Below are positions 1 through 24,450 of a stretch of DNA of 32,000 bases, in pieces. This stretch comes from an uncultured archaeon. Lineage in GTDB: Archaea; Iainarchaeota; Iainarchaeia; Iainarchaeales; Iainarchaeaceae. How positions within the stretch are numbered: position 1 is the stretch's first letter; each line of letters opens with the position of its first letter. The stretch covers positions 2,979 through 34,978 of the forward strand of contig CAZNZM010000006.1 of NCBI GenBank assembly GCA_964577555.1, given 5' to 3'. The notes below the pieces were generated by a model. It made no database searches. It saw nothing but the letters and a program-made list of their open reading frames with translations, and was not told where the DNA came from. The translations under genes were made by a program, and so were the position numbers.

Positions 1-640
1 AATAGTTTTTTTTTAAGTCATTTTTTTTGTTTTTTTTGAGCCATTTTTTTTGACAATTTTTTTTAATTTTTTGTTTTGTTTGTTTTTGCAAGCCAAGTTT
101 TTTTTGTAGTCATTTTTTTTGTAATTAATTTTGTTTTTGTCTTTTGTTTTGGCTGGTTGTTTTTTTTGTTTTTTTTTGAATAGTTTTTTTTTAAGTCATT
201 TTTTTTGTTTTTTTTGAGCCATTTTTTTTGACATTTTTTTTAGATTTTTTTTTGAACTTTTTTTTTAATTTTTTTTGGCGAGCCATTTTTTTTGTCGTTG
301 TTTTTTTTGTGAGCTGTTTTTTTGGCGTATTTTTTTGTTTTTTTAGTTGATTTTTTTTTGGCAAACCACTTTTTTTTGTCATTTTTTTTGTTGGTTGTTT
401 TTTTTGTGTTTGTTTTGCGAGCCATTTTTTTTTAGATTTTTTTTGAACTTTTTTTAATTTTTTTTGCGAGCCATTTTTTTTAGACAATTTTTGTTTTTTT
501 TGTTTGGGTTTTGTTTTTTTTGTTAGCCGGTTTTTTTGTATTTTTTTTGTTTTTTTGCGACGATTTTTTTTGTCATTATTTTTTTGTTTTTTTTTTGATT
601 GGAATTTGTTTTTTTCTGCTTCGCGTTTTTTGAGCCAATA
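1..640 (+). repeat. T-tract array locus A, truncated by the window start. T runs of mostly 7-9 nt are separated by short words (AATAG, AAGTCA, GAGCCA, GCGAGCCA, AGACAA).
   Basis: Read directly. 1-55 is identical to 179-233. 240-293 is nearly identical to 433-481, differing only in T-run lengths and one G. 412-532 matches 22689-22793, and 466-532 matches 6785-6842. Confidence 0.9.
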
Positions 641-643
641 AAC

Positions 644-655
644 TTTATATATAAA
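644..655 (+). promoter_or_regulatory. TATA-box-like element (TTTATATATAAA) for the pilin-like operon
   Basis: An A/T-alternating box centred about 30 bp upstream of the ATG at 680. This spacing is typical of archaeal leaderless or short-leader promoters. It directly abuts the end of T-array A. Confidence 0.5.
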
Positions 656-679
656 TACTTCTTTTTCCATTTTAAAGTC

Positions 680-1240
680 ATGAAAAGTCAAAGTGGGCAG
701 GAATCCGCGGTTTTCGAGTTGTTGATAGCCATAATTGTAATGGGGTTTGTAATACTTATTGGCACAAATGCTCTTGAGACTCTTCAACAAAAAACTTGTG
801 AAGGTACTCTGAGCCAAAACCTTGAAGACATAAGAAGTGCAATAGAAACAGTTGTGAAAACCAAGGGCAAAGCCCAAGTAAGGTATGAACTTCCAAGTTG
901 TTTTAATCAACAAGAAAGTTCTTTGAGGATAATTGAAAGGCAAAGCGCAACTTTTTGCAGTGCTATTTGCGAAGGCACTATGAAAGAATGCACTGTATTG
1001 CAATTTACTTCGCCAGGATACAGCGAATCAAAATGTCTTCATATATCTTCTGCAACAAACTTTCCTGATGGCGAGCCTTGTAATAAGGACTTGCTTCAAG
1101 GAGGAAATTATAAAATTGTGAATTGGCGTTCCAAAGAAGGCATACTCCCTGGAAATTATATTCTTATGAGAGAATCATCTATTTTCCTTAAAAGCCCGGT
1201 TATTTGTGTTTATCAACGCGACTACGGGACGGTGAACTAA
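680..1240 (+). CDS. Type IV pilin-like protein with a class III (prepilin) signal peptide
   Basis: Internal ATG of ORF 599..1240. The N-terminus MKSQSGQESAVFELLIAIIVMGFVILIG has a short polar leader, a G-Q, and then a roughly 20-aa hydrophobic helix carrying an early Glu. The mature part is Cys-containing and secreted-like. The upstream part of the ORF lies inside the T-array. Confidence 0.7.
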   Translation: MKSQSGQESAVFELLIAIIVMGFVILIGTNALETLQQKTCEGTLSQNLEDIRSAIETVVKTKGKAQVRYELPSCFNQQESSLRIIERQSATFCSAICEGTMKECTVLQFTSPGYSESKCLHISSATNFPDGEPCNKDLLQGGNYKIVNWRSKEGILPGNYILMRESSIFLKSPVICVYQRDYGTVN

Positions 1241-1905
1241 TGCTTGGTTTCATTCTCAGCAAACTTAATTTGTTGATTTTGGTTACTTCAATATTTGCCA
1301 TAGTTTCATTTTTTGCATTAGGCCTTGGCGATATTACAAAAGTCAAGGAAGCAGGAGAACTTGCCACGAAATCTGTCGAAAAAGCCGCATCCATTGCAAA
1401 CAGCCCGGCTTCATGCGAAAGTTCTTATTTTCCTTTTCCTAGACAACTTAGGACTGCTGGAAGCAACTTCTATTATGTAGTAAAAATATCTAAGGGCGAA
1501 ATACAACGTGAAGGGAATAAAATTAATATTCTAATATTTGCAGTTTATCCGCGCGAAGAGGTCAAGAAAAAGTTTTTGTCATCATCTTATGTTCCAAAAG
1601 CAATTGCTGCTGACAGTTTCAGAACTAATTCAGATATATTTCTTTATGGGCTTGATTATCGCGGTTCTGGTTATATCGGGAATATAAGTGATGGTGTTTT
1701 ATCACCTCCTAACGAAATTTATATTGACCCACAAGCAGAGAACCCTATGAATGCACTGGTTTTGGTTAAAGAAGTTCAAGACGGCAAGAAAAAGTTTCAT
1801 GTTATTGGCTGTGAAGGAACAAGTTGTAACGCATACAAAACCCAAATAGGCAGTTTGGTTCATCCTGGAACTTCATTAAATCCTGAAGGTGGTTTTTTAT
1901 GCTGA
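1240..1905 (+). CDS. Pilus-associated or minor-pilin-like protein with an N-terminal hydrophobic helix
   Basis: The ATG at 1240 overlaps the upstream TAA (TAATG). The N-terminus is MLGFILSKLNLLILVTSIFAIVSFFALGLG. It is operonic with the pilin-like genes. I recognise no domain. Confidence 0.6.
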   Translation: MLGFILSKLNLLILVTSIFAIVSFFALGLGDITKVKEAGELATKSVEKAASIANSPASCESSYFPFPRQLRTAGSNFYYVVKISKGEIQREGNKINILIFAVYPREEVKKKFLSSSYVPKAIAADSFRTNSDIFLYGLDYRGSGYIGNISDGVLSPPNEIYIDPQAENPMNALVLVKEVQDGKKKFHVIGCEGTSCNAYKTQIGSLVHPGTSLNPEGGFLC

Positions 1906-2405
1906 ACAAAGGATTCATAGGCCCGGTTGGCGACGACATGCCTTCTCTTACGCCGTTGATTTTTGGCTTGCTCATGTTTTTTGGAGCCTTTACAACAGCT
2001 TTTACTTCGTTCAACCAAAGAAACTCGGATTTTTCTTCAGACATAGAAGTTCTGAAAATATCGAAACAATTGGAGTCAAATGGATATATTTACAGTTATG
2101 AAAACTTTCAGGATTTATGCAATCAAATAAATTCAACTAATATAAAATTCATGGCCGCCATAACTTCAGAAGCATTTGAAAGATCGAACAAAAGTACTAT
2201 TTTTGAAATAGTTTTTTATGGTACACCCAACAAATTCTATTGTACAAATTTTGAATCAGCAACACCAAATCCTGAACAATTCAAAGACATAATTGATATT
2301 CCAAATCTTTCTCAAAAAAAAGTGGTTTCAAGAGTAATTCCAATTGTTGTAGAGGATAACAAAATAGCTAAACCAATGCATTTGATGGTGATAGCGTGGA
2401 AATAA
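1899..2405 (+). CDS. Small membrane-anchored or secreted protein of the pilin-like operon
   Basis: The start overlaps the upstream stop (ATGCTGA). The N-terminus MLNKGFIGPVGDDMPSLTPLIFGLLMFFGAFTTAF has a K-G followed by a hydrophobic segment. This is a less canonical class III signal. Confidence 0.55.
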   Translation: MLNKGFIGPVGDDMPSLTPLIFGLLMFFGAFTTAFTSFNQRNSDFSSDIEVLKISKQLESNGYIYSYENFQDLCNQINSTNIKFMAAITSEAFERSNKSTIFEIVFYGTPNKFYCTNFESATPNPEQFKDIIDIPNLSQKKVVSRVIPIVVEDNKIAKPMHLMVIAWK

Positions 2406-3220
2406 AAAAAACAAACCAAAAAGGCCAAGCAGCGGTAACAGACGCTCTTTACTTTTTGATGATTGTTACTTTCCTTTCAATTTTTCTTTTCGGCTTCGGC
2501 AACACTTATGGAAATTCTGTAAGGTCTGGAATATCTGATGAAGCTGACACTTCGTTTGTAACCAATGCACTAAAATCCATACTTTATAGTTCCACTCCTA
2601 GAGATACAAAACAATCAATATCAGATCCAAACGTTGAAATAGATTCGTTGCTTGCATTAATAAAAGAGGATTATGCGGATGATGAAACCATAGGCTCGGA
2701 AGAGCGCGAAGTTTTCGCAAAAACAATTTCTTCAATAATGTCTCCAGTTCAAGATACAAAGGATTACATATTGACACTTTCAATACCTCCAGAATCGGGC
2801 AGAAGTTCAAAATACATATTCGTTTTCATTCATACTACAAATTTTTTGCGTGAAAGAGCATTTGACAAATATGGAAAGCTTCTTCCAAAAAGTTTTGCAT
2901 ACTATAAGCCGGATGAAGCCAAACCACACATTGATTATTTTTGCGGCTTGAATAATTCTGACTTTGCCCAAATCCATAATAACATAAAAAAATTGGTTGC
3001 TAATGTTGGACCTACTTCTCAAGCATCAGCATCAATAAAAATGATAAAACACGCTACTTTTTTGGAAAAATACAACGCCCAAATAGACCTTATAGTGTGG
3101 GATGCAACATGGCTTGGAAAAACAGACGACGTGGCTGACGGAATTTTATACGATTCTGACCCAAAATCACCTTATGCTGATTGGGGTTGTTTAGAAGCAG
3201 GGACGACAAAACTTCCATGA
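2396..3220 (+). CDS. Type IV pilin-like protein with a class III signal peptide (KGQAA motif)
   Basis: A GTG start overlaps the upstream gene by 10 nt. The N-terminus is MEIKKTNQKGQAAVTDALYFLMIVTFLSIFLFGFG, with a basic leader, KG/Q, then a hydrophobic helix. Confidence 0.7.
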   Translation: MEIKKTNQKGQAAVTDALYFLMIVTFLSIFLFGFGNTYGNSVRSGISDEADTSFVTNALKSILYSSTPRDTKQSISDPNVEIDSLLALIKEDYADDETIGSEEREVFAKTISSIMSPVQDTKDYILTLSIPPESGRSSKYIFVFIHTTNFLRERAFDKYGKLLPKSFAYYKPDEAKPHIDYFCGLNNSDFAQIHNNIKKLVANVGPTSQASASIKMIKHATFLEKYNAQIDLIVWDATWLGKTDDVADGILYDSDPKSPYADWGCLEAGTTKLP

Positions 3221-3240
3221 TGTTAAACCATTGATTTTGA

Positions 3241-3625
3241 AACAGTATTTTTTTTATAAGCTGTTTTTTGCGGCATTTTTTTAGACATTTTTTTTGTTTG
3301 TCTTTAGTTTTGTTTGGCTTTTTTGTTTTTTTGTTTGTTTTTTTTGAATTATTTTTTTGCTTGGTATTTTTTTGTTTGAAACTTTGTTTTTTTTGTGAGC
3401 CGTTTTTTTTATTATTGTTTTTTTTGTGAGTTGATTTTTTTTATTTTTTTAATTTAACTTGTTTTTTTTGAGCAGTTTTTTTTAGTTTTGTTTTTTTGTT
3501 TTTATTTGTTTTTTTTGGCAAATCTGTTTTTTTTGCCACCTATTTTTTTTAATTGAAATTTGTTTTTTTTTGCGAAAAAATTTTTCGAATTGTGATTTTT
3601 GTTTATTTTGCAGTTTTTTTGTTTT
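3241..3625 (+). repeat. T-tract array locus B, between convergent genes
   Basis: T7-T9 runs are separated by GCGGCA, AGACA, GTGAGCCG, GTGAGTTGA, GAGCAG, GGCAAATCTG and GCCACCTA. Same orientation as locus A. Confidence 0.85.
3573..3587. terminator. Near-palindrome CGAAAAAATTTTTCG, a candidate bidirectional oligo-T terminator
   Basis: It gives T5 on the + strand and T6 on the - strand. It is the first run of at least 5 T that a transcript of the minus-strand gene ending at 3626 would meet. Archaeal RNA polymerase terminates at oligo-dT. Confidence 0.4.
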
Positions 3626-4366
3626 TTACCTGTTTTTCCTTTTTCTGAATTCTGCTCCGCATTTCGGGCAAGTGTATTTCAAAGATTCCGCTTGGACTTC
3701 AACAGATTTTGCGCAATGGTCGCAGAAAGCTTCCCCGCATTTAGGACAATAAATGAGTTCTTCTGACTTGTTTCCACATCTCGGGCAAACATTGAGGCCT
3801 GTTTCTATTTCCTTGTCAACCATGTCAAATTCATCTTCTGACAAATTGTCTTCAAGCGATGAAAGTTCGTCTATCTCTGCCAGTTTTTGTAAATTTTCAT
3901 TGTCCGTATCAATATGTTCTATTTCTTGTGATTGTTCAACTTCTAAATCATCTTCAAAATTATCTTCATTTTGAATGTTTTCAATTTTTTCTTCGTCTTC
4001 AGTTTGTTCCAAAACTTTTTCTTTTTGTTTTTCTTGCCAATCCTTTTCATCTTTCTTTTTTTTTCTTTCTTCCTTTCTTTTTTCAAGCAAATTTTCTTTG
4101 GCTTCCGGCTTTTCAAACCCGCCTAAGTCTATATCATCTTCAAACTCGTTTTTTTCTTCTTTGTCGTTTTCGAATTCCTTTTTCAACAATTCATATACAT
4201 TTTCAGCCATTTTGTTTATCTCATCTTTATTTGGATATCTGTTGTTTTGTTTTACGAATTCGTCAACTTTGTTTATTGCTATTTGTGTGCTTCGTTCTTT
4301 AATTTCAGTTTCGCTTGGTTTTTTTCTATAGAATCTTTGCAGTCTTCTAGGTATATCTTCCGTCAT
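3626..4366 (-). CDS. Acidic/charged protein with a C-terminal double zinc ribbon
   Basis: The C-terminus is CPRCG..CPKCG..CDHC..CPKCG (8 Cys in CxxC pairs). The central region is E/D/K-rich. The start forms an ATGA overlap with the stop of the upstream gene 4363..6084. Confidence 0.75.
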   Translation of the reverse strand: MTEDIPRRLQRFYRKKPSETEIKERSTQIAINKVDEFVKQNNRYPNKDEINKMAENVYELLKKEFENDKEEKNEFEDDIDLGGFEKPEAKENLLEKRKEERKKKKDEKDWQEKQKEKVLEQTEDEEKIENIQNEDNFEDDLEVEQSQEIEHIDTDNENLQKLAEIDELSSLEDNLSEDEFDMVDKEIETGLNVCPRCGNKSEELIYCPKCGEAFCDHCAKSVEVQAESLKYTCPKCGAEFRKRKNR

Positions 4367-6084
4367 TTTGAAGTCACGCTCTCCTGAAGTATTTTTTTCA
4401 ATAGCATTGCGGATTTTGGCATTACTTTATAAGCTTCAATATTTTGCTTTTTCTGTTTTAGCTCTTTTGTTCCAAGTTTTTCCCTGAGGCTTTCAATGAT
4501 AAATCTTTTTGAATCGTTTATTTCTTCTTCTATTTTATCTTTTGTTTTGATTTGTTTTGATTCTTCAGCCTTCTTTTTTTCAATTTCTATCATTATTTTG
4601 TCAATTTGTTTAGTGTCTTTTTTCATGATTTCTGATGTTTCTATTTGTTTTCCAAGAGATTTCAACTGGTTTTCCTTCTCCTGAACTTGCTTTGTTTCTT
4701 CAACTTTTGAAGTATTTTGAATAATTTTCTTGAGTTCCATTATTTTTCCCAATTTTTGCGGCTCTATTTCAATTTTGTCAATTCTGGTATTTTCTTTTTT
4801 TTGTTCTAATTTTGTTGTCTTTTTAACAGGTTGCTCTGTTTTACTGGCTTCGATTTTTAAGTTTTTGGCTGGCTCTTCGCTTTTTGTTGTTTTTGTTACT
4901 TCTTTGATTATGTTTTTTTCTGAATCTGGTTTTTCAGTGTTTTTTGCGGGTTCTTGTATTTTTGTTTTATCAATTGTTTCTTGTTGTATTGGTTTTTTTG
5001 AAATCATTTCGAAAAATTCTTTTAGAATTCCTTTGTTAGGCTTTTTTTCTTCTTTTGGTTTTGCAATTTCAGCTAATTTTTCGGTTTCTTTTTTTTGTTC
5101 TTGAATGTTTTGTGTTTTGGCAGTGGTTTGTAAAATAGCTTCTTTTGTTTCTTCAAGTTTTTTTGAAAACAAATTGGTTTCTTTGGTTGCTTCTTTAACT
5201 TTTATTATGTTTAATTCCTTTTCTTTTTTTGTTTCTGGTTTCAAGATTTTTGGTTGATTAAGTTCAATTTTTTCGTTTTGTTTTGTTGCATTTTGGCTCG
5301 GTGTTTTTTGTGTTGTTTGTTTAATTTCGTTTTTTGTTTTTTCTTGGGTTTTTGTTGGTTGTATTTTAGGTTCTTCTTTTGGAGATTGTTTTTCTGTTGT
5401 TATTAATATTTGTTCTTGCTGATTTTTAGGTTTTTTTTCAATTTCTAGTATTGGTTTTTCCATGTTTTTTTGTGGTTTGTTTATTATTGGTTTTGTATTT
5501 TCTTTGATTTTTTTCTTGAGGCTTTCTGTAAGTTCTTCAGGCATTTCCGGTTTCGTTTCTGCAAGTGTTTCAAATGTTTCAACTTCTATTTGGTTTTCGG
5601 TTTGGTTTGACAGTTGCGCTGGGTTTACTGGTGTTTTTATGCCTTCAATCAATATGTCTTTTATGTAATCTTCTTCAGGTATTTTTTCCATTGCTTTTTT
5701 GACAATAAGGTTTGCGACTAATGCTCTTTTTGGCACTGAAACTATTACCTTGTTTTTTCCGAAGTATTTTCTTTTGATGGAAAAAATTATAGTGCCAGTG
5801 GCAATAGTGCATATTGGCGCTATAAAAAGCATTTCCATGAAAGTTATGTTGTTTGGAAAAGTCAGTGTTACTGCTGTTGCTACGGCTATGGTGGAAATTG
5901 TGAATCCTGCTCCGCTTATTATTCCCCACCCTGTTTTAGTTTCTGTTTCCAATTTGCGTATTTTTGGCCAGCCGGAGCGCAAAAAAAGGTAGCCGACGCT
6001 TTGTCCTCCGATAAGGACATATGCTGCTAAACAAGTTTCAATAGCAGTTGTAACAGGTATTGGTATCATGCCTGCACTAAACAT
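4363..6084 (-). CDS. Membrane protein with about 4 N-terminal TM helices and a roughly 440-aa K/E/T/Q-rich low-complexity tail
   Basis: 573-aa ORF. The hydrophobic N-terminal ~110 aa are followed by a long charged region of lysine, glutamate, threonine and glutamine. It is translationally coupled to the zinc-ribbon gene. Confidence 0.7.
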   Translation of the reverse strand: MFSAGMIPIPVTTAIETCLAAYVLIGGQSVGYLFLRSGWPKIRKLETETKTGWGIISGAGFTISTIAVATAVTLTFPNNITFMEMLFIAPICTIATGTIIFSIKRKYFGKNKVIVSVPKRALVANLIVKKAMEKIPEEDYIKDILIEGIKTPVNPAQLSNQTENQIEVETFETLAETKPEMPEELTESLKKKIKENTKPIINKPQKNMEKPILEIEKKPKNQQEQILITTEKQSPKEEPKIQPTKTQEKTKNEIKQTTQKTPSQNATKQNEKIELNQPKILKPETKKEKELNIIKVKEATKETNLFSKKLEETKEAILQTTAKTQNIQEQKKETEKLAEIAKPKEEKKPNKGILKEFFEMISKKPIQQETIDKTKIQEPAKNTEKPDSEKNIIKEVTKTTKSEEPAKNLKIEASKTEQPVKKTTKLEQKKENTRIDKIEIEPQKLGKIMELKKIIQNTSKVEETKQVQEKENQLKSLGKQIETSEIMKKDTKQIDKIMIEIEKKKAEESKQIKTKDKIEEEINDSKRFIIESLREKLGTKELKQKKQNIEAYKVMPKSAMLLKKILQESVTSK

Positions 6085-6113: not shown

Positions 6114-6653
6114 ATGCCTGTTTCAGTGTTTGAAGTAATATTTGGTTCTATTGTGTCCTTGCTAAAGGGAAGTTTTTTTGTTGCAATTCCTCTTTTTTTC
6201 TTGATTTTGCTTGGTTCGATCATAAGAAAAAAAATTGAGAAAGAACTCAAATGGAATTGGATTTTTAGCGCTTTTTTTACCACTTATTTTATATGTTCAA
6301 TAGGACTTATTTTTGTTTATTTTGTCCCGGTTATAGAATCGCTTCGCGAACAATCGCTTGGCGAAATACCTTCTACTGTTGCCATTTCCTTTGGCACGAT
6401 TGTTTTGGCATTTCTTTATAATGCGTTCAAAGTGTTTTTTTCAGCACTTGTTCTTTCTTTGCTTTTAATGCCGTTGGAACTTGTTGGTCTTTACATGCAT
6501 TCTTTCTTTTTGCAAAAAATGAAAAAAGCTCCGAGAATTTTAGTGTTGGCTCTTACTGTTTATGCAATTTCTATTTTTTCCTCTTTTGTAATTCTTTTTA
6601 TAATCCCTGAATCAGTAGTCGGTTTTATTTACTTGCTTTTTTTCGGTTTTTAG
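6114..6653 (+). CDS. Small polytopic membrane protein (about 5 TM), function unknown
   Basis: 179-aa ORF of hydrophobic segments separated by short basic loops. It is divergent from 4363..6084 across only 29 bp. No peptidase A24 (prepilin peptidase) Asp motifs are seen. Confidence 0.65.
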   Translation: MPVSVFEVIFGSIVSLLKGSFFVAIPLFFLILLGSIIRKKIEKELKWNWIFSAFFTTYFICSIGLIFVYFVPVIESLREQSLGEIPSTVAISFGTIVLAFLYNAFKVFFSALVLSLLLMPLELVGLYMHSFFLQKMKKAPRILVLALTVYAISIFSSFVILFIIPESVVGFIYLLFFGF

Positions 6654-6654
6654 A

Positions 6655-6985
6655 ATTTATTTTTTGCGTTGCTTTTTTTTTAGTTTAAAATAAATACAAA
6701 TTATTTTTTTGTCTTTGGCTTACTTTTTTTTGCGAAAGATTTTTTTTGTTGCTTCTTTTTTTTAGTCGGATTTTGTTTTTTTTGGTGAGCCATTTTTTTA
6801 GACAATTTTTGTTTTTTTTTGTTTGAAGTTTTGTTTTTTTTTCATTTTTTTGTGAGCAGTTTTTTGATGTTTTTTTGTCAGATTTTTTCTTTTTTTTGTT
6901 TTTTTGATTCAGAATTAACTATTTTTTGCGATACGATTATTTTTTTTGTATTTTTTGTCAAAAACTTTTTTGTTGTTTTTTGGTC
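6655..6985 (+). repeat. T-tract array locus C, between two + strand genes
   Basis: It contains the core copy GGTGAGCCA-T7-AGACAA-T5-G-T9-GTTTGAAGTTTTG-T9 at 6785-6842, matching 466-532. Same orientation as the other loci. Confidence 0.85.
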
Positions 6986-7107
6986 AATGCAAGAAATGCC
7001 AATAAATTTCCATGCAAACAAATAAATAGCCTGTAAACCAACTATTATTTGTTAAATAATTTTGATTAATTAATGGATTAATTAAATGTTTTTTTTGTCG
7101 TGGTTGC

Positions 7108-10100
7108 ATGAATAGAAAAACTGCATTTTCAATTTTATTCGTTTATTTATTTGTTTTTCCATTAATTGGAGAGCCGGTAATTGCAAATTCTTATAATATG
7201 CCTGGAAAGAATGGCTTTGTTGCACAATTTGCTGAGCCTTCAGAAGTCCCTATTGGCCCTGCTTGTTTTTCAAAGGTTCTTTCACCGCAAGAAGCCCAAA
7301 ATGTTATTGATTTGTTGAAATCAGGTTATACTGGAAAGGAAATCAAAGGCAATACTCTTCCAGATGATGACAGGAAGTCTCTTGATAAAGACAAAATTGT
7401 CGTGCAGGATCCTAATAATGAAGAAAAAGCTGTCAAGGTAAGCGTTCCAAATAAAAAATTCAAGCCGGAAGAAGCCTCGCCTTTTTTGAATAATATTCTA
7501 AAAGGCCCTTTCGCGTTAGGTGTTGTTCTTGAAGATTCTTTGAGAGCAGGAGTGTGCAAAGACCCAGATTTGCCTGCTTGTTCTTTAACCAATAAAAATC
7601 TGAAATACAGGAATTCTGGATCAGGAATTATTGCCGATTTAAAACCCATGAAAGAAGCAATAGGCGAAATATATTCAAAATGGTTCAGCGGCGAAAAAGA
7701 CATAAACGGATTAACCAAAGTTGAAAACGAAGCAATTAGGGAAGCCATGAGGGAAGCCACTGATGAAACCCAAGTAAAAAGCGCGAAAAGGCTTGAAACA
7801 ATATTAATACCAAATTCAATACTTTCCGATTGGTTTGAAGCCAAAATGCAAAAAAATTGCATGAATGATGCTTGTGTTATAAGCACTTATTCATTGTTTG
7901 ACAAATATTTCAATTCATGGATGTCAAGCGAAATGGTAGTATCTACTTTTGGGCCTTCTTTGCTATACCAAACAAGGAAACTTTTTAATTGGACAGGAGC
8001 AAGAGGCTACTTTTCAGGAGTAAGGGAAAAATATCAAGAACTACTTGACCAAATAAGAGTGAAACTTATTCAACCAGAACAGCATCTTTATAAGTCACTT
8101 GTAAAAAAAATAAATACAAAACTTGACAAGTATCCAGGTTGGAGAGACTGGTGGTTAAAAACTATTGGCGGTAATCCTGATGGTACTGGGTATTATATTT
8201 TCAAAACTGAAGCATTTCAACATTGGTGGGGGGAAGTATCAAAATCAGGAGGTTTTTTGTCTCACATTAAGACTTTGGAGCAAAAAGCCGAATTTGTAAG
8301 AATGCTCAAAGACATGCGTGCATTAATGAGGGCTGGTTTGGCTGATGTTAAAGCCGCCAGACAAGAATATGCTAAAGCATATGATGCTGCAAGAAAATCA
8401 GGAATCGAGTATCCATTGCAAGATCCTTTTGTAAGAGAGAAATATTTGAATTATGGGCGTAAGATGATAACTTATATGAATGATTATTATGATGAAGGTT
8501 TGGGTGCTGATTATATAGAATGGATTGCAAGGTATAATTACGTTGCTTTATTTGATAAAGGAGTAAGATTTTATGCTCCTGACGGAAGCAGTGAAATAAT
8601 TGATTTGTTCAGAGACCACAGAAACTTAAGACAAATATTGTTGAAACTAAGAAATGATGGTACTTTCAAAGATTTTGAAAAGTATATTGATAAATATTCA
8701 AGTATTTTTGAAACAAGAGGCGATAACCTTGTGCTTTATACTTTTGACCCTAATCAAATCTCCAGTTCTCAAGGTTTGTCTTGGAGCAATATAAAAGCCG
8801 CGGCTCCTTCAGGGACAAGAAAAAGGGTTTTTATACGTGATGATACTGGAAGGGCTATCCCATATAATTCATCTTCTGCAACTTTCATACAAAACAGGCT
8901 TTCAACCAACGCTCAAGTTCTTGAAGGCAATTGGAAAGAGTATGGTGAATTAAGTCCAATTGACATGATTTCAAGGATTGACAACGCGAGAACAGGCACA
9001 AATGCAAATCTTGCATTTGGAGTTTATAACATAGAACAAATGCTCACCTCATTGAAATCCAGAAATTGGGTTTCAAGAAGATATTGGAATGCATTGGATA
9101 AATTGTTTGCCCAGGAAGAAGAGCTTGTAAGAAGCTATTTTACTTTTAAGGGAGGAGCAAGGCTCACGGCATTGCCATTTGCTTATTGGTGGGCAAAAAA
9201 AGGTTTTGGCGAAGAAGGATTAAGCATGTATATGCTGCCTGATACTTGGCACGATTTGAAGTTTTCAATTGGAGAACATCCAATTTATCACTACGCATAT
9301 ATAGACTTTTTTGCAAACGAAGGTTCTGACCAAGGAGACTTGTTTATTCAGGTTTTGAACAAGCTACCTTGGAAACTTGTGCTTGATGAATTATCAGAAA
9401 AATACAATCCTATAAAAAACCTTTATGATGCTTTGACAAAAAACGAGCTTAGAAGCGAAACCGAAAATTTGGCGTTTTATCTGACAGGCGACGATGAATG
9501 CGTTGATTGTACAATGGTTGTGAAAAGCCAAAACATGAATGATTTTAGGCCATTCTTTTTTGCAGGCAACAGAAAAATAGATTCTTACATAATTGAAGAC
9601 ACTGTTACTGAAAAAGCAAGGAACAAAGGGCAAACATTAATAGCTTTTGCAAGCCACACCAATCTTATAGGAAAAAGCGGCGGCAAAGAAGGCGAACCCA
9701 TAGACCTGGTCAAAACCATTGAAGGAAAAACAAAAGAAAAAACCTGCAAAGAAGCTGTTGAAAACCTTGAATTTGCTGGAGTGAAGTTTGGCAGAATATA
9801 CAATGCAATAACCCCTGATTTCAAAAATAAAAGTTCAGGAATAGGATTTATGTTGGGAGGCTTGGAAAGCATAACTTATGGCGCATTTTTTTGGGCAGGA
9901 ATTTTCAGCACTATTGCAATACAAGTTGCCGTGGCACCACAATTAAGCGGTTGTGTAGATGCTGAACAGGGTTATTACGCGCATTACTTTGCTCCTGTTA
10001 AAGAAACCAAAAACAAACAATCCAATTCGGTTGAAAAGTCAACTGAAAAAGTTTCAAAATTAGTAAAAGACTTCAAAGAAAAATTTGTAGACAGTTTCAA

Positions 10101-11631
10101 GAGCGATTCTTCAAACCCTGTTACAGAAGTCGCAGAAAACCTTGGAAATGAACTTGACAATTTAGTAGGCAATGCAAAGGACAATGATTTAGTTCAAGCA
10201 AACCTGAAATTGCAGGGTATGAGTTCAGGTCAATTATTTTCTAGGGAACTTTTTTATGTTTGGTGTGGCGAAGGATGTGAAATAGGAGCCGCAACTTATA
10301 AACAACAAGGCTCTGAAAAAGTTGCAGGAGTTAATGGAAGCGAAGTAGGAATAGACTTTGCAAAAGGCGAAATAAATGAAAACGGAAATAAACCCATAGT
10401 TTCAAGCCCTGACAATGTAAGACTAATCAATACCAACCTCAACATACCTGCAATTGAAATACCTTACACAGTAACTGAGGCTTGCCTCAAAAATACAAAC
10501 AACATAGTTTTTGAAATTAGTGCACAAGGCAATGTAAAGGTGCTTGACAAGGAATTATTGGATTGCCTGCAAAAAGGAGTGCTTGATCAAACAGGATTAA
10601 ATTTTACTTCAGACATTCTTAATGATGTTTTCGGCAACCTTGATGTGATTGTTACTGACACTTATCCAAACATCAAACCTTTTGACGATAGAATAATAGC
10701 AGAAGGAGTGCCAAGAAAAGTTGTTGAAGGAAAAAACACAAAAATTACGATATCTGCTAATAAAGATGTTAATCTGAATACTATTTCTGGAAGCCCCATT
10801 TTTGTAGGAAAACTCCAAAGTTTGCATTTTGCCAACGGTTCAATTGTTGTAAAACCCAATGGATGTTTCCTTACATGGTTAAAGCACCATGAAAATGCAA
10901 TACTTAACAAGGATGATGTTACAGGGCTTTCCACAAAACTTAAAAGGGAAATGAACGAAGAAACAGGCTGTGAAGATCCAGTAATAGATTTCAAAGTTCT
11001 TGCAGACCCAAATTCAGATTTAAAAATTGCAAAAGTTGACAGCTTTAATAAAGCCTTGGAAAAAGTCGGACCTTTCACTGTTTTTGAAACGCCAACAAAG
11101 AGATACATTATTTCCGCAGAAAAAGGACCTGATGGAAAATGCAGAGATCATTTGCGCGTTATAGATAAAGAAACAGGAAAAGTAACAGATTATGTAGGCG
11201 AAATAGCACAAACACCAAACGGGCTCACCATAAAAACCGATGACGGCCAAACCCACACAATAGAATTCGGAGAAAAAGACGGAGCCCCGACAATTTCGTT
11301 TGATAAAGGAAAACCAGAAAATCTTATTTCCGCACAAGGAAAAAACGGCTCTTTCTATTACGACCCAGAAAAAGGATTATGGTTCGCCGAAAACGCCCAA
11401 TTATTGCCTTTGATTGAAGCATTCCGCGAAGGAATAGCAGCCAAAGTAGCGCCAAACGGCGAAGTCACGGCTACTGCACAAGGCAACGTGCTAAACGTTG
11501 ATTTAGGCAAAAAAGACCAACAACTTTTGGATTTGCCATCGCTTCCAGAAGCAAAATACTTGATACTAATAATATTCTTGGCTCTAATCGCAACATTTTA
11601 TGTTTCTTCCACAAAAAACAAAAAACCCTGA
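7108..11631 (+). CDS. Giant orphan secreted / surface-anchored protein (1507 aa)
   Basis: Uninterrupted 4.5-kb ORF. The N-terminal signal-like segment is MNRKTAFSILFVYLFVFPLIGEPVIANS. The C-terminus is LPSLPEAKYLILIIFLALIATFYVSSTKNKKP (TM helix plus basic tail). I recognise no domain or internal repeat. Confidence 0.85.
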   Translation: MNRKTAFSILFVYLFVFPLIGEPVIANSYNMPGKNGFVAQFAEPSEVPIGPACFSKVLSPQEAQNVIDLLKSGYTGKEIKGNTLPDDDRKSLDKDKIVVQDPNNEEKAVKVSVPNKKFKPEEASPFLNNILKGPFALGVVLEDSLRAGVCKDPDLPACSLTNKNLKYRNSGSGIIADLKPMKEAIGEIYSKWFSGEKDINGLTKVENEAIREAMREATDETQVKSAKRLETILIPNSILSDWFEAKMQKNCMNDACVISTYSLFDKYFNSWMSSEMVVSTFGPSLLYQTRKLFNWTGARGYFSGVREKYQELLDQIRVKLIQPEQHLYKSLVKKINTKLDKYPGWRDWWLKTIGGNPDGTGYYIFKTEAFQHWWGEVSKSGGFLSHIKTLEQKAEFVRMLKDMRALMRAGLADVKAARQEYAKAYDAARKSGIEYPLQDPFVREKYLNYGRKMITYMNDYYDEGLGADYIEWIARYNYVALFDKGVRFYAPDGSSEIIDLFRDHRNLRQILLKLRNDGTFKDFEKYIDKYSSIFETRGDNLVLYTFDPNQISSSQGLSWSNIKAAAPSGTRKRVFIRDDTGRAIPYNSSSATFIQNRLSTNAQVLEGNWKEYGELSPIDMISRIDNARTGTNANLAFGVYNIEQMLTSLKSRNWVSRRYWNALDKLFAQEEELVRSYFTFKGGARLTALPFAYWWAKKGFGEEGLSMYMLPDTWHDLKFSIGEHPIYHYAYIDFFANEGSDQGDLFIQVLNKLPWKLVLDELSEKYNPIKNLYDALTKNELRSETENLAFYLTGDDECVDCTMVVKSQNMNDFRPFFFAGNRKIDSYIIEDTVTEKARNKGQTLIAFASHTNLIGKSGGKEGEPIDLVKTIEGKTKEKTCKEAVENLEFAGVKFGRIYNAITPDFKNKSSGIGFMLGGLESITYGAFFWAGIFSTIAIQVAVAPQLSGCVDAEQGYYAHYFAPVKETKNKQSNSVEKSTEKVSKLVKDFKEKFVDSFKSDSSNPVTEVAENLGNELDNLVGNAKDNDLVQANLKLQGMSSGQLFSRELFYVWCGEGCEIGAATYKQQGSEKVAGVNGSEVGIDFAKGEINENGNKPIVSSPDNVRLINTNLNIPAIEIPYTVTEACLKNTNNIVFEISAQGNVKVLDKELLDCLQKGVLDQTGLNFTSDILNDVFGNLDVIVTDTYPNIKPFDDRIIAEGVPRKVVEGKNTKITISANKDVNLNTISGSPIFVGKLQSLHFANGSIVVKPNGCFLTWLKHHENAILNKDDVTGLSTKLKREMNEETGCEDPVIDFKVLADPNSDLKIAKVDSFNKALEKVGPFTVFETPTKRYIISAEKGPDGKCRDHLRVIDKETGKVTDYVGEIAQTPNGLTIKTDDGQTHTIEFGEKDGAPTISFDKGKPENLISAQGKNGSFYYDPEKGLWFAENAQLLPLIEAFREGIAAKVAPNGEVTATAQGNVLNVDLGKKDQQLLDLPSLPEAKYLILIIFLALIATFYVSSTKNKKP

Positions 11632-15267: not shown

Positions 15268-15283
15268 AAGGGGGGCACCCCTT
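15268..15283 (+). terminator. GC-rich hairpin AAGGGG-GGCA-CCCCTT followed by T tracts
   Basis: Perfect 6-bp stem with a 4-nt loop, 26 nt after the stop at 15242. ACTTTTTCTTTTTTTTT follows immediately. It is the only G/C-rich island in this spacer. Confidence 0.5.
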
Positions 15284-15403
15284 ACTTTTTCTTTTTTTTT
15301 GTCTTTTGCTCTTTTTTTATTTCTTTTGTTCCATATAGCTTTTTTTTGAGCCAATTTTTTTTTAATAGTTTTTTAATTTGAATTAAATTTGTTTTTTGAT
15401 TTT
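15284..15403 (+). repeat. T-tract array locus D (short), between convergent genes
   Basis: It contains GC-T8-GAGCCAA-T9-AATAG-T6, reusing the GAGCCA and AATAG words of locus A in the same orientation. Confidence 0.75.
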
Positions 15404-19067: not shown

Positions 19068-19110
19068 AATGCGTTGCTGAATAAATAACTTTTGGATTGG
19101 CCACTATAAC

Positions 19111-19308
19111 AATTTTTTTTGCAATTTGTTTCTGTCAAATGATTTTTTTGCCATGAAGAGCCAAAAGTGTTTTTTTGCTGGTTGTTTTTTTGTTCTGCAA
19201 GCCGTATTTTTTTTAGCAATTTTATTTTTTTAAGTTTTGATTTTTTTTGTTTTGTCTTGGCTTTTTTGAGTCTTTTTTTGTTGGTTTTTTTTCACGTTTT
19301 TTTTATAG
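19111..19308 (+). repeat. T-tract array locus E, in a divergent region upstream of the tRNA
   Basis: T7-T8 runs are separated by GCAA, GCCATGAAGAGCCAAAAGTG, GCAAGCCGTA and AGCAA. GCAAGCCGTA-T8-AGCAA-T4-A-T7 is a degenerate copy of the GAGCCA-T8-AGACAA core. Confidence 0.75.
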
Positions 19309-19423
19309 TTTCTCGTTCCAAACTAAAAGATAACATTATAAAATTTGTTTTATGCTTAGGATCTTTGGTAATCCTGCAAATTAGCTAGGTTGCAGGGTTG
19401 GATTTATTGCAAATTAAAGTTAT

Positions 19424-19551
19424 AGCCCCGTCGTCTAGCGGCTAAAGAAATTCAGTTTAGTAAATTTTTTAACAATTTGAAAAATTGATTTCTGTCGAAA
19501 GGATGCGAGCCTCTGGAGCTCGAAACCCCGGTTCGAATCCGGGCGGGGCTA
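19424..19551 (+). tRNA. tRNA-Gln: tRNA-Gln (anticodon CTG) with a roughly 55-nt intron at a non-canonical position in the D-loop / D-stem junction
   Basis: Acceptor AGCCCCG (19424-19430) pairs with CGGGGCT (19544-19550), with discriminator A. T-arm is CCCGG-TTCGAAT-CCGGG. Anticodon arm is CGAGC-CTCTGGA-GCTCG (19506-19522). D-stem is GTCT (19433-36) with GGAT (19501-04). About 55 extra nt lie between AGCGGCTAA and GGAT. A T9 tract follows. Confidence 0.85.
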
Positions 19552-22562: not shown

Positions 22563-22639
22563 TATTTATTCAAACTGATAAAACTATAAAAATTCAACTA
22601 TTCCCAGGATTTAAAAATAAATTTGTTGAAAAACAACGA

Positions 22640-22880
22640 AATAGTTTTTTTTTGAATTATTTTTTTATTTTGTTTTTTTGTTTTTTTTGTTTTGCAAGCC
22701 ATTTTTTTTAGTTTTTTTTTGAATTGTTTTTTTTGTGAGCGTTTTTTTTAGACAATTTTTGTTTTGTTTTATTTTTGGAGTTTTGTTTTTTTGTGAGCCG
22801 TTTTTTTGCCATTTTTTTGTGAACTTGTTTTTTTGTTAACGATTTTTTTGCTTTTAGGGAATATTTTATTTTTTTTATGA
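22640..22880 (+). repeat. T-tract array locus F, between two minus-strand genes
   Basis: 22689-22793 aligns word for word with 412-532 (GTTTTGC[A/G]AGCCA-T8-AG-T9-GAA..-T8-G[T/C]GAGC.-T8-AGACAA-T5-G...TTTTG-T7/8). It begins with AATAG-T9-GAATTA, as do loci A and B. Confidence 0.9.
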
Positions 22881-22884
22881 CATT

Positions 22885-24450
22885 TTAATTTTTCTTGTTT
22901 TCTTTATAGCTTTTTTTGGATATGTTGTTTTTTTCTTGCTTATTATTTAAAGCCGATGTTTTATTTTCTTTTATTTCCGTTTTTTTTCTAAAATCCATTT
23001 TTTTGCCTAAAATTAACGCCCACGCTGTTAAGCATGCAACCAGCACTATTATAAATAACAAAATTTCGTTTGCATAATTTTTTTTCTCTTCATCAATTGA
23101 AACATGAACCGAATAGTTTTCAGGTTTTGTCTCAACTTCTTGGTTTTTAGTTTCCGTGCTTTCATTAAGTTTCATAACAATTGAATGCTCGTTTGAGTTT
23201 CCAGCCATGTCTGTCGCAATTGCCTTTACTTCAATCAAACCATTTTTTGGCTCAGCCGAAAAATCAAGAGAATAAAAGATGTTTTGGCCGTTTTCTTCAG
23301 ACTCCACAAATTCCATGTTTCCTTTTGAAACGCCGTTTGCAAAAAGTTCAATTTTGTTTAATCCCAATCCAGCATCATAAGCATTTGCAACAACTTTTAT
23401 TTTTGCCGATTTTTCTCCGCTTTCTTTAATTGTTCCAAAAATTTTTATGTCCGGTTTTGCTGTATCAAATTCAAAATCCTTTTCGTAAGTACACTCGGTT
23501 CCATCAGGTTTTTTTACAAATAACACTAAGGTTCCTGTTCCATAAGAATTGATTGGAATATTATATTCTGCTTCCGTTTCTTTATTAAAAAACTTGTTTT
23601 CAAAAATTTTTTCAAGCTCTTTTTTTTGCATTGAAATGAAAAGCGTTGAATTTTCCACTGGAACGTCTGAAACAATTTTAAATTTCAAGGTGCCTGTATA
23701 TGTTGTTTGAGGTGTTGAGAATTCGATTTTTTCAACACAATTTTTTTTATCGTTCAAGAATTTTTTTATCGGGCTTATTACTCCATAGTTTCCTGCGTTG
23801 TCTATTGCTTGTATTCGGTAATAATAAGCTATTCCTTGCGTAAGTTTGTCAGTGTCAATGTAATTTGTTTCTTTTACTCCGAAAATTTTTTTTACTCCAA
23901 TATCAGTTGGACCGAACTCTTTTTTGTTTATGTATTGCTTGACACTCCTGTAAATATTGTATTCTTTTATCCCTGAAACGTCCTCCGGAGGCTTCCACAA
24001 TATAAGCACGCCTTCGTTGTTTTTTGAAAATGTTATATCTTGGACTTGTTCAGGCCCAGTCCTGTCAATCATTAATTTGTATGTTGAAGTCCCAAAACAA
24101 TTCTTTGTTTCGTTGCAAGCTTCCAAAATAAAATAATTTTCTCCCTCTGGCAAATTTTCAATTAAAACCGAATTAGTTTTTATGTTTGTCCACTTGTCTT
24201 CACCAGGTTTTTCAGATTTTGATATTTGATAACGGTAATATGTGGCTTCGGTTACCTTGTCCCAATTGAATTTTCCAGCAGTATTTCTGGTCCAAGCGTC
24301 TTGAGGGTTGGTATCTGAATAAATTTTTATTACAACATTTTCTGCTGTTGCAAAGACAAAAAAAGATTGAAAAATAATAAAACAAAAAAAAGCAATCACT
24401 AATTCTTTCCATTTTCTTGCAAGCATATTACCCAATTTGAAAAGGCACAA
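22885..24450 (-). CDS. Surface protein with FN3-like and Ig-like domains, an N-terminal signal/anchor, a C-terminal TM helix and a Lys-rich tail
   Basis: FN3-like segments (WKPPEDVSGIKEYNIYRS...GIAYYYRIQAIDNAGNYG) and an Ig-like segment (KIKVVANAYDAGLGLNKIELFANG...VKAIATDMAGNSNE). C-terminus is ILLFIIVLVACLTAWALILGKK plus a K/N-rich tail. The start may be the second Met (24426). Confidence 0.8.
   Translation of the reverse strand: MCLFKLGNMLARKWKELVIAFFCFIIFQSFFVFATAENVVIKIYSDTNPQDAWTRNTAGKFNWDKVTEATYYRYQISKSEKPGEDKWTNIKTNSVLIENLPEGENYFILEACNETKNCFGTSTYKLMIDRTGPEQVQDITFSKNNEGVLILWKPPEDVSGIKEYNIYRSVKQYINKKEFGPTDIGVKKIFGVKETNYIDTDKLTQGIAYYYRIQAIDNAGNYGVISPIKKFLNDKKNCVEKIEFSTPQTTYTGTLKFKIVSDVPVENSTLFISMQKKELEKIFENKFFNKETEAEYNIPINSYGTGTLVLFVKKPDGTECTYEKDFEFDTAKPDIKIFGTIKESGEKSAKIKVVANAYDAGLGLNKIELFANGVSKGNMEFVESEENGQNIFYSLDFSAEPKNGLIEVKAIATDMAGNSNEHSIVMKLNESTETKNQEVETKPENYSVHVSIDEEKKNYANEILLFIIVLVACLTAWALILGKKMDFRKKTEIKENKTSALNNKQEKNNISKKSYKENKKN

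Follow-up and report, generated by a model that had tools for sequence, protein, structure and literature searches.

What kind of sequence is the short repeat that recurs, among runs of T, at separate intergenic sites of one archaeal contig? Within the 32,000 nucleotides that we analyzed (the window), a core string of T-runs and short words had been singled out as either a discrete, propagated element or a module recognized by protein or RNA. The core is a genuine, recently propagated repeat that forms one stretch of a lineage-specific oligo-T satellite.

Oligo-T arrays in a low-GC Iainarchaeota genome

The host is a low-GC Iainarchaeota (DPANN) archaeon. Archaeal genes in the window include those for GGR (geranylgeranyl reductase), PAC2, a Y-family polymerase, and pilin-like and fn3 surface proteins, and an archaeal type IV pilus ATPase and platform proteins are also encoded; database homologues carry the label Diapherotrites. 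The only GTDB representative found, by a protein-guided genome scan, was a Candidatus Iainarchaeum MAG with 70% GGR identity that lacks an array there. Our window has its match in JGI contig Ga0394875_0000575 (66 kb), and the JGI and Logan assemblies of four samples are 100% identical to it, arrays included. The organism is present in JGI samples 3300037501, 3300043177 and 3300043267 and in run SRR12686701. All short-read assemblies of the host and of its sister species end or split inside the T-tract arrays (1-640; 22683-22710; L028:10257-10553), with array A lying at the contig end in four assemblies and the overlap of Logan contigs L002 and L004 consisting of 28 bp inside array F; the array lengths reported here are therefore lower bounds. 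Arrays of this kind fragment MAGs and break short-read assemblies and, since they differ between sister species, they matter for MAG quality and annotation.

Seven arrays, each a succession of T7-9 runs and words of 1-21 nt, lie within 42 kb, six of them in the window and one (G) on the same contig about 5 kb past the window's right end (Table 1). All are confined to intergenic DNA. Array A, which precedes the promoter of an operon for pilin-like proteins (ATG at 680), carries an internal 178-bp duplication (1-87 versus 179-265, 90% identical), and array D contains GAGCCAA-T9-AATAG. Tandem Repeats Finder (TRF) periods of 178, 105, 100 and 58 bp were found in the arrays, which with their tandem units, higher-order periodicity and change of size between species have the features of minisatellites.

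Table 1. Arrays, core copies and homologous segments (window coordinates unless a contig is named)
Feature	Position	Strand	Description
Array A	1..640	+	>40 T6-10 runs, words 1-21 nt
Array B	3225..3635	+	between convergent genes
Array C	6650..6995	+	between two + strand genes
Array D	15270..15400	+	7 runs, after + strand MscS-like gene
Array E	19095..19315	+	between - strand gene start and tRNA-Gln
Array F	22636..22885	+	between two - strand genes (GGR start, fn3 end)
Array G	L003:16210-16600	same polarity	20 T-runs; upstream of glycosyltransferase operon
Core copy in A	458..521	+	nhmmer E=1.3e-9
Core copy in C	6777..6841	+	nhmmer E=3.1e-11
Core copy in F	22724..22792	+	nhmmer E=1.8e-11
A segment homologous to F	409..570 vs 22686-22849 (~160 bp)	+	score 83.6, z 6.6, 0/300 shuffles
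A segment homologous to G	281..422 vs L003:16312-16456	+	z 5.0, 0/200 shuffles

T-run length within the arrays had its mode at T8 (60 runs, alongside 17 of T6, 39 of T7, 19 of T9 and 2 of T10); elsewhere, T-runs and A-runs become geometrically rarer with length. Tracts mostly stand about 12-18 bp apart; their spacing was irregular overall (8-47 bp), with a mode of 15-16 bp and Fourier peaks at 12-18 bp. Phased A-tract curved DNA was rejected as an identity for the arrays on account of this spacing mode and the lack of 10-11 bp phasing. A CRISPR array was also rejected, as nothing but T7-9 is constant and the words measure 1-21 nt, versus the near-identical repeats of 24-48 nt, alternating with unique spacers of similar length, that a CRISPR array requires; neither the scan of 20 window ORFs nor, for the rest of the 42 kb, the precomputed Pfam annotations showed cas genes.

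On the plus strand the arrays are 63% T, 15% G, 15% A and 7% C, and most inter-tract words begin with G. AGCC occurs 20 times in the arrays against 1.4 expected and GCCA 21 times against 1.4 (z about 16). AGCC is present in every array and, with 20 occurrences as opposed to 7 of its complement, is strand-specific. Enrichment of the word (G)AGCC(A) is 14-fold and extends to arrays that cannot be aligned with the core. The same holds for the array of the sister species, in which AGCC was found 6 times against 0.6 expected (p<0.0005). Enrichment of one word in arrays that cannot be aligned, and in a second species, could reflect a recognized motif rather than mere common descent.

The arrays also share a polarity: 7 of 7 in the 42 kb are T-rich on one strand regardless of the orientation of neighboring genes, for which the probability by chance is about 1 in 64 (two-sided). 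No A-rich, mirror-image array was found in the 42 kb, and the sister-species array is T-rich on the same strand too. Across the whole window, with the coding-strand effect cancelled, codon position 3 showed a skew of T over A on the plus strand (+0.085, bootstrap CI 0.02-0.15) and an excess of C over G (-0.09), the latter opposite to the G>C of the arrays. This weak strand asymmetry may reflect replication direction, and the simplest hypothesis for the polarity of the arrays would tie it to replication direction as well.

Several other features of the window deserve mention. Conventional-looking terminators are embedded in the edges of two arrays, one at 3571-3586 in B, a bidirectional palindrome (GCGAAAAAATTTTTCG) between convergent genes, and one at 15270-15300 in D, a hairpin (GGGGGGCACCCC) followed by T5 and T9. 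The tRNA-Gln(CUG) at 19424-19550 (plus strand) has a ~57-nt non-canonical intron in its D-loop, with exon 1 ending in AGCGGCTAA and exon 2 starting with GGATGCGAGCC; this intron-split gene was missed by both ARAGORN and the Rfam gathering search. The sister species (L028) shares the intron; an orthologue that lacks it lies at L005:7410-7480. Six proteins without Pfam matches are encoded at 680-3220 (plus), 7108-11631 (plus) and 4363-6084 (minus), comprising four consecutive small proteins with pilin-like N termini, one protein of 1507 aa, and one of 573 aa that is K/E-rich and of low complexity, for which only one homologue (71% identity) was found among 5.8 billion sequences. This Pfam-less stretch is a fast-evolving, surface-related region.

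The core repeat, its extent and its turnover among relatives

The positions and strings originally given for the core were exact at all four sites. In array A the string beginning at 466 reads GCGAGCCA-T8-AGACAA-T5-G-T8-GTTTGGGTTTTG-T8, matching strings begin with GTGAGCCA at 6785 in C and with GTGAGCG at 22735 in F, and a weaker string, GCAAGCCGTA, begins at 19197 in E. The 18-mer TTTTTTAGACAATTTTTG occurs three times exactly (476, 6794 and 22744) against 0.01 expected, and AGACAA-T5-G is invariant across the copies in A, C and F.

Since dinucleotide shuffles were judged too lenient at this composition, we scored composition-weighted local alignments against a null in which the order of words and the order of T-runs were permuted within each array. 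All three pairs of core-bearing arrays exceeded the 300 skeleton-preserving shuffles (A-C, z 4.4; A-F, z 6.6; C-F, z 4.9; 0 of 300 as good in each case), so that the similarity of the copies in A, C and F is beyond chance. The degenerate copy proposed for E (19185-19223) did not survive the same comparison, with A-E reaching z 1.1 (41 of 300 shuffles as good) and nhmmer an E-value of 0.74, and the E-F alignment was not significant either (z 1.8, 10 of 300). Arrays B and D gave no significant alignment to other arrays in this word/T-run-order test. A profile HMM of the three cores, run with nhmmer, found full-length matches at A, C and F only, together with partial matches to its left half (GAGCCA-T8-GACA) at 37-61, 215-237, 271-291, 413-436 and 3270-3292.

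The leftward extension of the similarity between A and F was borne out, and the homology continues rightwards as well (Table 1). Array G, in addition to its match to A, is homologous to F at 22681-22736 (z 4.4) and to C at 6686-6721 (z 3.8). The six homologies (A-F, A-C, C-F, G-A, G-F and G-C) are collinear, on the same strand and significant, while the homologous segments measure 65, about 145 and about 160 bp and differ in their end points. Copies differ from one another in T-run length, by substitution of words, and by gain or loss of whole [word+T-run] units. The segments of A matched by G and by F together define an ordered block of at least 290 bp in one orientation. Judged from these alignments, the 60-bp core is the overlap of three partial copies of this longer block.

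These findings divide the original prediction. The copies cannot be called a discrete element, as they are unequal, overlapping pieces without common ends, terminal inverted repeats or a recognizable target-site duplication, but propagation is upheld, the core-bearing arrays being absent or much smaller at the sister-species sites and a further partial copy (G) lying outside the window. Alignments better than shuffled sequence had been anticipated along with copies elsewhere in the genome or its relatives; the alignments did beat the shuffles, while scans of more distant relatives and of public collections of viral and metagenome sequence revealed no copies. As for a protein- or RNA-recognized module, no RNA structure and no Rfam match was found, whereas the 14-fold over-representation of (G)AGCC(A), its strand specificity and its presence in every array lend the idea some weight.

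Comparison with relatives indicated that the arrays are labile. The sister species (L028 and L029) has 95% amino acid identity in GGR and 83-88% (~87%) nucleotide identity in the flanks of the arrays. At the site of array F, L028 and L029 have a 110-bp spacer and no array, and F is also absent from more distant relatives. The site of E holds a ~70-bp mini-array of four runs in the sister species, and that of D an orthologous array that has 17 runs, is at least 290 bp long and keeps the same polarity. Although the words of this sister array (GTGAGCC, CCAAGCCA, GTCAA and GGCTTGGC) are of the same kinds as those of the window, it does not align with array D (z 0.0). In a further relative (L037, 81-86% nucleotide identity), array B is absent and a single T8 run stands at its site. 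At the empty orthologous sites of B and F, short T-runs, one to three in number, stand on the same strand (one to four if the E site is included). Taken together, the gain, loss and resizing of arrays and the short T-runs at the relatives' sites indicate that the arrays are young and grew from pre-existing clusters of T-runs, and that they turn over faster than the sequence flanking them.

In more distant relatives (66-85% GGR identity, 31-52% GC), no large array of 6 or more T-runs was found in the contigs examined (L005, L030, L031 and L038-L041), some of which hold mini-arrays of only 4-6 runs; none exceeded 6 runs even at a 4-run threshold. One of these mini-arrays has recognizable words (T7-AAGTCACG-T6-G-T5-GTTTGGCTTCC), and those of a relative with 71% GGR identity have a vocabulary similar to that of the window arrays. 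The intergenic mini-arrays of 4-6 runs at L038:252-330 (reverse complement) and L005:7586-7681 likewise have similar words (AAGTCA, GTTTGGCTT and GCCGG), from which we infer that the grammar is older than the large expansions.

Searches further afield returned little. An exact scan of metagenome contigs with the invariant 23-mer gave 3 matches, none of them in a T-array, and a scan of viral contigs with TTTTGYRAGCCATTTTTTT gave 19 matches, none in an array; these matches are chance or terminator-like. Scanning viral contigs for T7G-word-T7G-word-T7G yielded simple T-tract minisatellites, with no heterogeneous words and no multi-locus arrays. A search of the literature on T-tract arrays or homopolymer repeats in DPANN or Iainarchaeota found nothing relevant.

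Origin and possible roles of the arrays

The best explanation, which we hold with about even confidence, is that multi-U-tract terminators have grown into a lineage-specific, fast-evolving oligo-T satellite in which the core is the overlap of block copies. Termination by archaeal RNA polymerase with aCPSF1 takes place where two or more tracts of at least 4 U lie within about 18-36 nt, aCPSF1 binds RNAs in which 18 nt or more include two U-tracts or more, and in Methanococcus the efficacy of termination rises with the number of U4-tracts (PMC8716108). The arrays have this arrangement (two or more tracts of at least 4 T in 18-36 nt), their T7-9 tracts being 8-20 bp apart. With respect to placement at 3' ends, B, C and D start directly after plus-strand genes, while E, F and G adjoin minus-strand promoters. 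As DNA, the arrays would block plus-strand transcription, with B, C and D stopping read-through from plus-strand genes and E, F and G stopping divergent or antisense plus-strand transcripts that arise from minus-strand promoters.

According to this explanation, the arrays would have begun as ordinary archaeal multi-U-tract terminators or insulators and grown by slippage, unequal alignment, template switching or ectopic conversion, with T8 tracts serving as microhomology. Whole [word+T8] units would thereby be added, deleted and copied between arrays with strand polarity kept. In favor of such expansion, the indels between copies are changes in T-run length or whole-unit gains and losses. Several points count against the explanation, however: thirty T8 tracts would far exceed what termination needs, a terminator role gives no reason for the missing A-rich (on the plus strand) arrays beside minus-strand genes, neutral slippage is not expected to hold run length so tightly at 8, the strand-specific enrichment of GAGCC/GCCA could point to a recognized motif, and the codon-position-3 skews are weak and, for C over G, opposite to the arrays. 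If the explanation is true, U-tract terminators ran away into a dispersed, concertedly evolving satellite that, in a DPANN genome of the usually compact kind, fills about 6% of 42 kb.

An unlikely but credible alternative is that the core, or GAGCCA-T8-(A)GACA(A), is a cis site recognized by a protein and that the arrays are platforms of many such sites maintained by selection. The binder might be aCPSF1/FttA, if the RNA is the target, or else a factor of chromatin, replication or transcription. Consistent with recognition, the enrichment of AGCC and GCCA is strand-specific and extends to every array, including those that do not align and that of the sister species; AGACAA-T5-G did not vary among the three core copies, the narrow distribution around T8 suggests constraint, and a similar vocabulary recurs in the mini-arrays of the relative with 71% GGR identity. 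However, descent of all units from one founder unit also accounts for the enrichment, word order differs between species to the point that the orthologous D arrays cannot be aligned (z 0.0), whole arrays are dispensable in a sister species, and the tracts are irregularly spaced (8-47 bp).

That dispensability, together with the rapid turnover between species and the frequency of T-tract minisatellites in AT-rich viral genomes, would also fit a neutral origin without function, in which AT-biased mutation and slippage at homopolymers produced the arrays in a reduced genome poor in repair and the core is simply the most recent duplication. We consider such an origin rather improbable given the sharp peak of run length at T8, the single polarity of all 7 arrays (about 1 in 64, two-sided), the heterogeneous but non-random words, and the 100% identity of the arrays across four samples, which argues that they are not hypervariable within the population.

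Single-strand polarity, fixed T8 length and enriched GAGCCA in combination lie beyond known terminator or repeat biology and are not explained by it. With a confidence that is low, we also consider an undescribed class of DPANN element, namely T8 platforms signed with GAGCCA whose orientation is set by, or acts on, the replication fork and which have a dedicated, T-tract-guided means of spread. Such arrays might serve in priming or mark fork polarity, or they might be barriers that work in one direction and so order transcription relative to replication, and they would move between intergenic sites by T-tract-guided copying rather than by passive slippage. If this were true, GAGCCA would be the signature word of the platforms. 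In a closed genome, a switch of array polarity at the origin or terminus would reveal from sequence, as is rarely possible for an uncultured archaeon, the direction of replication.

A further alternative is a non-autonomous mobile element, MITE-like or derived from IS200/IS605, that inserts strand-specifically at T-runs, although we regard this as distinctly improbable. Single-stranded DNA transposons, as known from IS608, insert in an orientation that follows replication direction, and all copies here have a single orientation. Homologous segments stand at loci 6-22 kb apart, and B and F show the presence/absence differences between close relatives that characterize insertion polymorphism. 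Nevertheless, the copies are of unequal length without shared ends, and no terminal inverted repeats or subterminal hairpins were found, with B, C and F and their flanks giving only low-complexity A/T pairings and both strands folding no better than shuffles. Comparison of F with L028/L029 and of B with L037 revealed no target-site duplication, at junctions that are blurred by merging T-runs. No transposase was present among the 20 window ORFs scanned or, as judged from precomputed Pfam annotations, among the other genes of the 42 kb, and the empty sites already carry short T-run proto-arrays, consistent with growth in situ.

A gene product, whether a structured or U/A-rich non-coding RNA or a Lys-rich protein of the minus strand, is effectively refuted and very improbable. 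Although gene callers predict a 159-aa Lys-rich ORF in A and a 65-aa ORF in G, ORF lengths match the word-shuffled expectation (p 0.085 for A, about 0.5 for the others), copies differ by indels of 1, 2 and 7 nt that are not multiples of three, and the 159-aa ORF had no homologues in a protein database search in which composition-bias scoring probably masks matches to other arrays. The Rfam gathering search gave 0 matches in the window, folding z-scores ranged from -0.9 to +1.8 on both strands, and T8 tracts would terminate plus-strand transcription. Spurious lysine-rich proteins from these arrays have been deposited in databases (window 191-670, minus strand, 159 aa; L003:16167-16364, minus strand, 65 aa). 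Lastly, an assembly or sequencing artefact of low-complexity DNA, to which the breaking of contigs inside arrays might point, is exceedingly improbable, as different assemblers and different samples yielded identical array sequence, the words are specific, ordered and non-random, and a second species, assembled from a different metagenome, has a related array at an orthologous site.

Comparison with known systems

The arrays resemble several known classes of sequence in part. Like Chi and KOPS/AIMS, they keep a uniform orientation over tens of kilobases independently of gene direction, but those are single short motifs that run through genes and are read by RecBCD and FtsK, whereas the arrays are long and intergenic and their link to replication is hypothetical. 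With poly(dA:dT) tracts that exclude histones or nucleosomes, and with phased A-tracts, they share dense A8:T8 in promoter-proximal intergenic DNA; the arrays lack 10-11 bp phasing, however, and exclusion or bending would need no single polarity. MITEs and REP/BIME sequences are likewise dispersed, intergenic, orientation-biased and variable in presence, yet the arrays have no inverted repeats, hairpins, fixed ends or target-site duplications and no cognate transposase in view.

The likeness to minisatellites is closer, as the arrays share with them head-to-tail units, higher-order periods, changes in copy number and assembly breaks, and the minisatellites in AT-rich contigs of giant viruses and phages are similarly built of T7-8 plus a short word. 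In contrast with these viral minisatellites, in which near-identical units occupy one locus, the arrays combine a constant T-tract with heterogeneous words and are dispersed over at least 7 loci with collinear blocks and one polarity. Archaeal U-tract terminators resemble the arrays in having sense-strand tracts of at least 4 T, two or more of them within about 18-36 nt, with no hairpin needed; more tracts give stronger termination (PMC8716108), arrays B, C and D likewise follow plus-strand genes, and the 1-4 tracts at the orthologous sites of relatives, which would be the seeds of the arrays, look like ordinary terminators. Whereas such terminators have 1-4 tracts, the arrays range from 7 tracts in 130 bp to over 40 in over 640 bp, with tract length fixed near 8. 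Arrays E, F and G differ further from terminators in not lying downstream of a same-strand gene, and all of the arrays differ in occupying one genomic strand only and in having blocks copied between loci.
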